Origin: Escherichia coli
GTDB taxonomy: Bacteria > Pseudomonadota > Gammaproteobacteria > Enterobacterales > Enterobacteriaceae
Assembly: GCF_044324875.1 (NCBI RefSeq)
Contig: NZ_CP172185.1
Reading direction: 5' to 3' (one strand)
DNA length: 64,000 bases
Shown piece by piece: positions 12,609 to 12,644 of the stretch. The notes under the pieces were generated by a model. That model had not been told where the DNA came from. It did no database searches and saw only the letters and a list, made by a program, of their open reading frames with translations. The translations under genes and the position numbers were made by a program. Within the stretch, counting starts at the first letter, position 1, and the number at the start of each line of letters is the position of its first letter.

Positions 12609-12644
12609 CTGCTATTGTTGCTAGCCGGCTAGCAACAATAGCAG
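12609..12644. repeat. Perfect 36-bp palindrome (18-bp arms)
   Basis: ctgctattgttgctagcc|ggctagcaacaatagcag; arms are exact reverse complements; ~45 bp beyond the stop of the 607-aa gene. Confidence 0.8.

Follow-up and report, generated by a model that had tools for sequence, protein, structure and literature searches.

The stretch of DNA analysed here (64,000 nucleotides from Escherichia coli, referred to throughout as the window) includes a chromosomal island that is also present as an annotated, 99% identical copy in strain 135 (L001). In that strain a gene of the YagK/YfjJ family ('inovirus-type Gp2') is followed by non-coding AT-rich DNA, a gene encoding a 607-aa protein, an alpA-type gene, a gene encoding a DUF3987 protein and a tyrosine integrase gene. 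The non-coding AT-rich stretch extends over 1.2 kb and contains the perfect palindrome with which this analysis is concerned. The features of the window are as follows:

10914-11477, minus strand: YagK/YfjJ ('inovirus-type Gp2') gene, whose 5' end faces the palindrome across 1.1 kb of non-coding DNA (RefSeq annotation of the identical region; ORF clustering)
12609-12644, no strand assigned: perfect 36-bp palindrome, four pentamers arranged as two inverted doublets; candidate replicase-binding site or island origin
12609-12623, plus strand: left iteron doublet, C-TGCTA-TTGT-TGCTA, with pentamers at 12610-12614 and 12619-12623 and a period of 9 nt
12630-12644, minus strand: right iteron doublet, reverse-complementary to the left one, with TAGCA at 12630-12634 and 12639-12643
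12687-14510, minus strand: gene for the 607-aa all-alpha, TPR-like protein ('F607' family), divergent from alpA
14599-14859, plus strand: AlpA-family helix-turn-helix protein (Pfam Phage_AlpA, E 6.9e-19)
14875-16421, plus strand: DUF3987 helicase gene, split into ORFs 14875-15339 and 15336-16421
16629-19268, plus strand: insertion of about 2.6 kb relative to strain 135, between the DUF3987 and integrase genes (seen as a BLAST gap)
16750-18396, within the insertion: IS21-family transposase ORF, with rve and Mu-transpos_C_2 domains
19289-20497, minus strand: island tyrosine integrase (ORF mapped onto the annotated L001 integrase)

The frameshift that splits the DUF3987 gene in the window corresponds to a 19-bp deletion near position 15334 relative to strain 135, and on this sequence the island helicase is probably inactive in the window's strain. 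Because the gene is frameshifted, the palindrome is probably an idle relic here, unless the helicase is supplied in trans. A second ORF in the insertion, at 18170-19168, probably encodes the helper ATPase of the IS21-family element. The integrase gene lies 6.6 kb from the palindrome.

The palindrome reads CTGCTATTGTTGCTAGCC|GGCTAGCAACAATAGCAG, and each arm comprises two TGCTA pentamers 9 nt apart in the motif CTGCTAnnnnTGCTA. It had been described in the initial annotation as an exact, loopless 18+18 inverted repeat that was unlikely to have arisen by chance and did not resemble a canonical intrinsic terminator, and all three statements hold. Direct reading of 12609-12644 gives two arms of 18 nt with 0 nt between them and 100% complementarity. 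Among the perfect inverted repeats of the window with a loop of up to 6 nt it is the longest, all others having arms of less than 11 nt, and 60 simulations with a first-order Markov model gave longest arms of 9.3 nt on average and never of more than 11. No second copy is found elsewhere in the 64 kb, even when three mismatches are allowed. On the plus strand the flanking bases contribute a further T.G and a C-G pair, such that the stem spans 12607-12646; the bases next to it are GGATATACAA on the plus strand and AGAGGGGGCA on the minus strand, with a T-run on neither, and a U-tract is likewise absent from every homologue that was read. A terminator scan of 11400-14700 listed four sites, and the palindrome was not among them. 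The predicted fold of either strand is dominated by the hairpin (minimum free energy of -46.8 and -40.9 kcal/mol for 161 nt, z-scores of -2.6 and -3.0). The minus-strand ORF encoding the 607-aa protein has its stop codon at 12687-12689, with the palindrome following after 43 nt. Both the palindrome and the 3' end of this gene are enclosed by a 26-nt inverted repeat (12092-12117 and 12770-12795), the copies of which are 85% complementary and 652 nt apart.

A BLAST comparison of a 62-nt query spanning the site with 5,426 complete E. coli genomes recovered it in 158 of them and at this locus only, each genome giving two places that represent the two strands of one site. A dispersed repeat of the REP, BIME or ERIC type, which was considered as a candidate, is ruled out by this single locus and by the single copy in the window, and the concern raised at the outset, that the palindrome might be a common repeat unrelated to the locus, is thereby dispelled. 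Comparison of a 34-nt consensus with plasmid and phage collections yielded no convincing match. A longer query of 281 nt added 55 genomes, including O104:H4 strain C227-11, in which the region is about 68% identical. These genomes encode a 611-aa homologue, 72% identical at the protein level to the 607-aa product, and carry at the same spot the site CCCTGCTAATTTTGCTAA-TGG-TTAGCAAAATTAGCAGGG, the stem of which differs from that of the window by three two-sided changes (T:A to A:T, G:C to T:A and G:C to A:T). A variant island in strain 47-1826 retains the palindrome unchanged, and the 20 nt to its left contain five differences (four substitutions and a 1-nt deletion).

The 607-aa protein has only 47 relatives in a profile search of 1.84 billion cluster representatives. 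In the contigs that encode relatives of about 31% identity, the gene is always divergent from an alpA-DUF3987-yfjJ series, and in all of them a hairpin, CTGCTACAGCTGCTAC-GT-GTAGCAGCTGTAGCAG or a close variant, is found 12-16 nt past the stop codon. It had been proposed that conservation of the palindrome should be checked with this gene in homologous islands; every homologue for which the DNA extends far enough keeps a hairpin, at 12-69 nt past the stop and with compensatory changes. The view that the 607-aa 'orphan' gene is the partner of the palindrome did not survive the wider comparison described below, since the motif occurs in dozens of loci that lack this gene, the common factor being a gene for a DUF3987 helicase, and the 607-aa family adjoins the site in the Enterobacterales only. 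Two independent Logan contigs stop inside the hairpin GGCTACAGTGGCTACGCGTAGCCAC (L009 5860-5896 and L010 3407-3443), and many Logan contigs carrying the 607-aa gene are all 5448 nt in length, which is consistent with a break in the assembly graph at the palindrome.

More distant representatives of the site were recovered with the search pattern CTGCTAnnnnTGCTA-N(2-10)-TAGCAnnnnTAGCAG, which fixes 22 bases, leaves the spacers free and sets no condition of complementarity on the n positions. In 298 Gb the estimated number of chance matches is about 0.15 (4^-22 x 9 gap lengths x 2.98e11 positions), and matches were found in 34 species representatives of the Gamma- and Betaproteobacteria and in five IMG/VR contigs. 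The Enterobacterales among them include Serratia, Citrobacter, Kluyvera, Pectobacterium and Xenorhabdus; other Gammaproteobacteria include eight Pseudomonas species together with Shewanella, Vibrio, Halomonas, Marinobacter, Alcanivorax and Methylotuvimicrobium, and the Betaproteobacteria include Variovorax, Rhodoferax, Comamonas, Dechloromonas, Undibacterium and Rugamonas.

The spacers of these sites differ in sequence and yet remain mostly complementary. There are 19 different left spacers among the 38 distinct sites, and the four free spacer positions per arm form Watson-Crick pairs in 129 of 152 cases (85%), compared with 68.5 +/- 5.7 (maximum 90 in 2000 permutations) when arms are re-paired among loci. 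An alignment of 33 sequences gives a covariation score of 0.314, which none of 500 shuffles reached, compared with 0.113 after shuffling. Complementarity also continues beyond the fixed motif: the first pair outside it is formed in 25 of the 33 sequences, by six types of pair, and in several sites the stem is prolonged by 4-9 non-conserved pairs (8 bp in L027, for example). The pentamer columns are invariant across the 33 aligned loci, but were fixed by the search pattern itself. Pentamer sequence is retained from Beta- to Gammaproteobacteria, whereas the spacers keep only their complementarity. The centre between the inner pentamers measures 2-6 nt in the 38 pattern-matched sites, and 4 nt in 28 of them. 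Neither the aligned sites nor an oriented listing reveals conservation in the loop or flank columns, or a nick sequence.

Directly adjoining T-runs of five or more are absent from the homologous sites that were read, the nearest approaches being L033 (CTC followed by TTTTTTT) and L041 (C followed by TTTT). In the 30 nt immediately adjoining the sites, AT content exceeds the background by only 7 points. The flanks (+/-100 nt) contain 23 pentamers where 10.9 are expected, more than half of which come from three loci. As signs of an AT-rich unwinding element and of additional iterons, respectively, both signals are weak. An early count of G.T wobbles, nine antisense to DUF3987 and two sense, had suggested a hairpin acting on one strand, but the bias vanished with the addition of 12 loci: a scripted count over 43 sites assigns 13 mismatches to wobbles in the DUF3987 sense, 15 to the antisense and 15 to other kinds.

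Clustering of the ORFs that flank the sites identified DUF3987, confirmed with Pfam, as the largest family (34 loci), followed by AlpA (25 loci), YagK/YfjJ (two clusters, with 14 and 11 loci) and integrase (14 loci). L013 likewise has a DUF3987 gene, in divergent orientation. Four loci do not follow the linkage: no DUF3987 gene was seen in the locus DNA examined for L026, L034 and L044, and in L016 it is 5.7 kb from the site. The distance between site and DUF3987 gene is 5-600 nt in most loci. Its position relative to the genes of the module varies considerably: it is found 11-28 nt past the DUF3987 stop codon in six loci, 100-260 nt ahead of the alpA reading frame in seven, between alpA and DUF3987 at 7-50 nt before the DUF3987 reading frame, and 160-360 nt before yfjJ in further loci, and in enteric bacteria, the window included, it lies past the divergent 607-aa gene at about 2.2 kb from the DUF3987 gene. 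As read from the locus maps, the site is within 70 nt of a stop codon in about half of the loci and in a divergent promoter region in about half.

A sample independent of the motif was provided by 36 DUF3987 loci fetched from IMG/VR by protein similarity alone. A recognisable site is present within about 600 nt of the DUF3987 gene in 17 of the 36; four of these were detected by a palindrome scan, and belong to contigs that the earlier motif scan had also matched, and 13 more by a covariance model built on the 33 sites. Two further loci contain degenerate copies. The model is specific: the window contains no other match, and 69 kb of strain CFT073 contain none at E < 0.1. The commonest layout is integrase, alpA, site, DUF3987, yfjJ. 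In three loci (L064, L075 and L082) the site stands beside DUF3987, and matches to AlpA, YfjJ and integrase are absent within +/-2.5 kb. It is nearly certain that the palindrome represents a selected cis-element of the AlpA/DUF3987/YfjJ island module; linkage to DUF3987 in particular, rather than to AlpA or YfjJ, is suggested by a few loci that separate these genes.

Departures from the standard form include imperfect arrays, a site with a one-base bulge (L051), two with three repeats (GCTA units) per arm (L082 and L075) and a relative detected with the model that has a 23-nt centre and non-complementary spacers (L065). In the CP4-57 prophage of E. coli K-12, inverted-repeat, pattern and covariance-model searches give no site, but reading of the spacer between alpA and yfjI shows a degenerate dyad, GCTATTTCCGCCATTAATAGCGGAATAGC, at 2,758,909-2,758,937 of strain MG1655 (L050 4910-4938). 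This copy is located 48 nt upstream of the yfjI start, where RefSeq has no feature. A Methylococcaceae contig (L033) possesses two dyads downstream of DUF3987, at 6996-7036 and 7419-7459, which are 420 nt apart, the second being preceded by extra GCTGCTAAT repeats; the arrangement is reminiscent of phage P4 with its two-site origins (ori and crr). At L076 5057-5094, 1.8 kb downstream of DUF3987, the same design is built from a different repeat, with two copies of AAGTATAAA facing their complement without a loop, and this palindrome may be a specificity variant.

The DUF3987 protein has a replicative-helicase fold. The intact island DUF3987 protein (L001) matches PHROG 2373, annotated as 'DNA helicase', and in an AlphaFold prediction (pLDDT 80.6) it models as a helicase of the MCM-like AAA+ type whose C-terminal domain is winged-helix-like. 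A PriCT-DUF3987 protein was shown to be a 5'-3' helicase that serves, together with a PrimPol, as a mobile element's replicase (PMC11724360). In the PICMI satellites, which have the order int-alpA-prim, deletion of the 'primase' gene lowers satellite copy number, and this class of gene was found in that study by means of DUF3987 and DUF5906 profiles (PMC10803314).

Iteron origins beside island replicase genes are already known. The origin of PICI elements lies directly 3' of pri-rep and is formed by two iteron sets with an AT-rich region between them, as validated for EcCICFT073 (PMC6092414). In the CFT073 sequence (L088 13996-14283) we find tandem 9-nt iterons, CTGTCTACC CTGTCTACC, and inverted sets, GGTAGATAAGGTAGACA, distributed over about 230 bp. 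The palindrome shares with this origin the 9-nt-period doublets in both orientations, here collapsed into one dyad. It differs in being compact, with a dyad of 32-36 bp and a centre of 0-6 nt, in that the two sets abut, with no AT-rich melting region seen between them, and in its iteron sequence, and the covariance model finds nothing in the CFT073 island. The replicase is also of a different type in EcCICFT073, which has a D5_N/DUF5906/Pox_D5 protein and not DUF3987.

A resemblance in design, and in design only, is found in site II of the SV40 and polyomavirus core origin, a perfect palindrome of four pentanucleotides arranged as two inverted pairs, on which the initiator-helicase assembles as a head-to-head double hexamer. 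The island site has the same four pentamers in two inverted pairs within a perfect palindrome, whereas SV40 belongs to a different domain of hosts, uses an SF3 helicase (T-antigen) in place of an MCM-like AAA+ protein, has the pentamer GAGGC with other spacing, and needs in addition to site II a flanking AT tract and the early palindrome. A further parallel is provided by the plasmids pSC101, F, P1 and R6K, which carry operators composed of inverted half-iterons upstream of their rep genes. The commonest layout of the island module (alpA, site, DUF3987) similarly places inverted repeats just upstream of a putative initiator gene; iteron plasmids, however, have a separate array of direct iterons as the origin proper, and no such array accompanies most of the sites described here.

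In mobile islands of many proteobacteria the site accompanies a replication gene of the helicase type, and so it is most likely bound by the protein which that gene encodes. We favour, at about even odds (a probability of roughly 0.5), the view that the palindrome is the binding site of the DUF3987 replicative helicase of the island, serving as an origin, as an operator of the helicase gene, or as both. According to this proposal the DUF3987 protein would recognise on duplex DNA the two inverted iteron doublets, with their 9-bp period and TGCTA core. Each arm would bind one initiator assembly, and two helicase rings could then be loaded head-to-head at the centre of the dyad and open the DNA, perhaps assisted by a cruciform that the perfect dyad extrudes in negatively supercoiled DNA. 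At loci with the site just upstream of the DUF3987 gene, binding of this kind could in addition repress that gene, in a manner comparable to the repression of rep genes by the inverted half-iterons of iteron plasmids. Against an origin, an AT-rich unwinding element is barely detectable beside the sites, and in the window and other enterobacterial loci the 607-aa gene and some 2.2 kb separate the site from the DUF3987 gene. Plain recognition of iterons would moreover not need complementary spacers, so that something more must be invoked; the spacers could be due to a state in which the arms are base-paired, such as a cruciform, to whole-arm recognition, or to homogenisation by template switching. 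In a bolder version, which we put forward tentatively and which is on balance doubtful, the dyad of 32-36 bp would be a complete minimal origin, with four pentamers loading two MCM-like DUF3987 rings head-to-head as a bacterial counterpart of SV40 site II and with spacer complementarity reflecting a required cruciform. Such an origin would be common to AlpA-type islands and satellites of the Beta- and Gammaproteobacteria, including CP4-57 of K-12.

The same observations can be read in other ways, of which a simple operator is the most probable although we regard it as rather unlikely. AlpA, or another small DNA-binding regulator, would control the promoter of alpA, DUF3987 or yfjJ through the site, which would have no part in replication. 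Operators typically show dyad symmetry, AlpA is found as well in 25 loci, and the site, which with few exceptions is intergenic and precedes one of these three genes, is placed in a way that suits an operator equally well. However, AlpA-cluster matches are absent from the examined flanks of six loci (L064, L075, L082, L021, L023 and L024), in the window the site follows a convergent stop codon at 43 nt while the nearest start codon facing it is 1.1 kb away, and the arms with three repeats and the second copy in L033, 420 nt away, look more like iteron arrays. A hairpin acting in RNA is a distinctly less probable explanation; situated in the 3' UTR of the 607-aa mRNA, or behind alpA or DUF3987 at other loci, it might be a terminator or attenuator without a U-tract, a barrier to 3' exonucleases after Rho-dependent termination, or an RNase III site in the manner of lambda sib retroregulation. 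The stem is stable on either strand and covaries, and its location 12-69 nt past the stops of 607-aa homologues, 11-28 nt past the DUF3987 stop in six loci and within 70 nt of a stop in about half of all loci would suit such a role. Intrinsic terminators and REP-type 3' hairpins are likewise stable, G+C-containing stem-loops situated tens of nucleotides past a stop codon, but the island site lacks a U-tract, is not dispersed and keeps its stem sequence across bacterial classes. The absence of a U-tract at every locus read, the mismatches without strand bias and the variable position relative to genes, with the other half of the loci having the site in divergent promoter regions, all argue against an RNA hairpin. 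Conservation of pentamer sequence from Beta- to Gammaproteobacteria would moreover be unusual in a structural RNA stem, the relative with a 23-nt centre and non-complementary spacers (L065) cannot fold into a hairpin, and Rfam gives no match at E <= 1 on either strand of 10500-15500. The three-unit arms of L082 and L075 and the bulged site of L051 also speak for a repeat array that a protein reads on duplex DNA.

A hairpin in single-stranded DNA that is recognised by YagK/YfjJ, as a nick site, rolling-circle origin or transfer origin, is improbable, yet several features of the loci are in keeping with it. YagK/YfjJ is distantly related to the gpII/Rep proteins of filamentous phages and gives sub-threshold matches to Pfam REP_ORF2-G2P, and in about 24 loci a gene of this type lies no more than 4 kb from the site, often immediately adjacent (at 160 nt in L016, 161 in L041, 42 in L025 and 59 in L033); in L016 the site adjoins yfjJ while the DUF3987 gene is far away. 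The pairing that continues beyond the pentamers in several loci, such as the 8 further bp in L027, would also be accommodated. The loop of 2-6 nt and the flanks are however unconserved, with no conserved nick sequence visible, four loci (L064, L075, L082 and L049) have the site and DUF3987 without YfjJ matches, and the mismatches again show no preference for one strand. A sequence search of the PDB with YfjJ gave no relative, and the literature searched on TOTE, YfjJ and yfjI contained nothing relevant. It is highly unlikely that the palindrome is the core of a site-specific recombination system for dimer resolution or integration, in spite of its two inverted arms around a short centre and the tyrosine recombinase encoded by the element: overlap regions of recombinases are fixed at 6-8 bp, whereas the centre here varies from 2 to 6 nt and reaches 23 nt in L065, the integrase gene lies at a variable and large distance, and no second copy occurs at the island ends in the window. 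The suggestion first made for this palindrome, of a protein-binding or recombination site or a cruciform, is accordingly retained in part. A protein site, which may extrude a cruciform, is the best-supported form of it, and the recombination core is set aside on account of the variable centre and the 6.6 kb that separate the integrase.

The literature that we searched defines no cis-acting replication site for DUF3987 islands and does not describe the compact palindromic GCTA-iteron site, its linkage to DUF3987 across the Beta- and Gammaproteobacteria or the copy in CP4-57. Islands that combine an integrase, alpA and DUF3987 are very common, and include CP4-57-like cryptic prophages, PICMI-like satellites and many islands carrying defence genes. 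A short conserved site can serve as a marker in the annotation of such elements, as a concrete substrate for the biochemistry of the DUF3987 (MCM-like) helicases, and as a mutational handle on the question of whether the islands replicate after induction. In the window, what had appeared as an odd palindrome beside an orphan gene becomes a recognisable part of a decaying mobile element.

Other parts of the non-coding stretch are also conserved. Over the approximately 500 nt nearest yfjJ (11478-12000), conservation with the O104:H4 island is much higher than over the remainder, which is about 68% identical, and an isolated 24-nt block, TAATAATACTAATTAACCTTAATT, at 12217-12240 is the same in the window and O104:H4 islands. 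This conserved DNA may represent an extended leader, a small RNA or a further cis-acting site. Beyond yfjJ, the O104:H4 island encodes an intact 786-aa fusion of an AEP primase and an SF2 helicase ('TOTE conflict system' primase; L002 756-3116). The island type of the window has this primase only as a pseudogene fragment (L001 11050-11375, corresponding to approximately 10449-10774 of the window), which adjoins a second, broken gene of the Gp2 family and an IS3 element.
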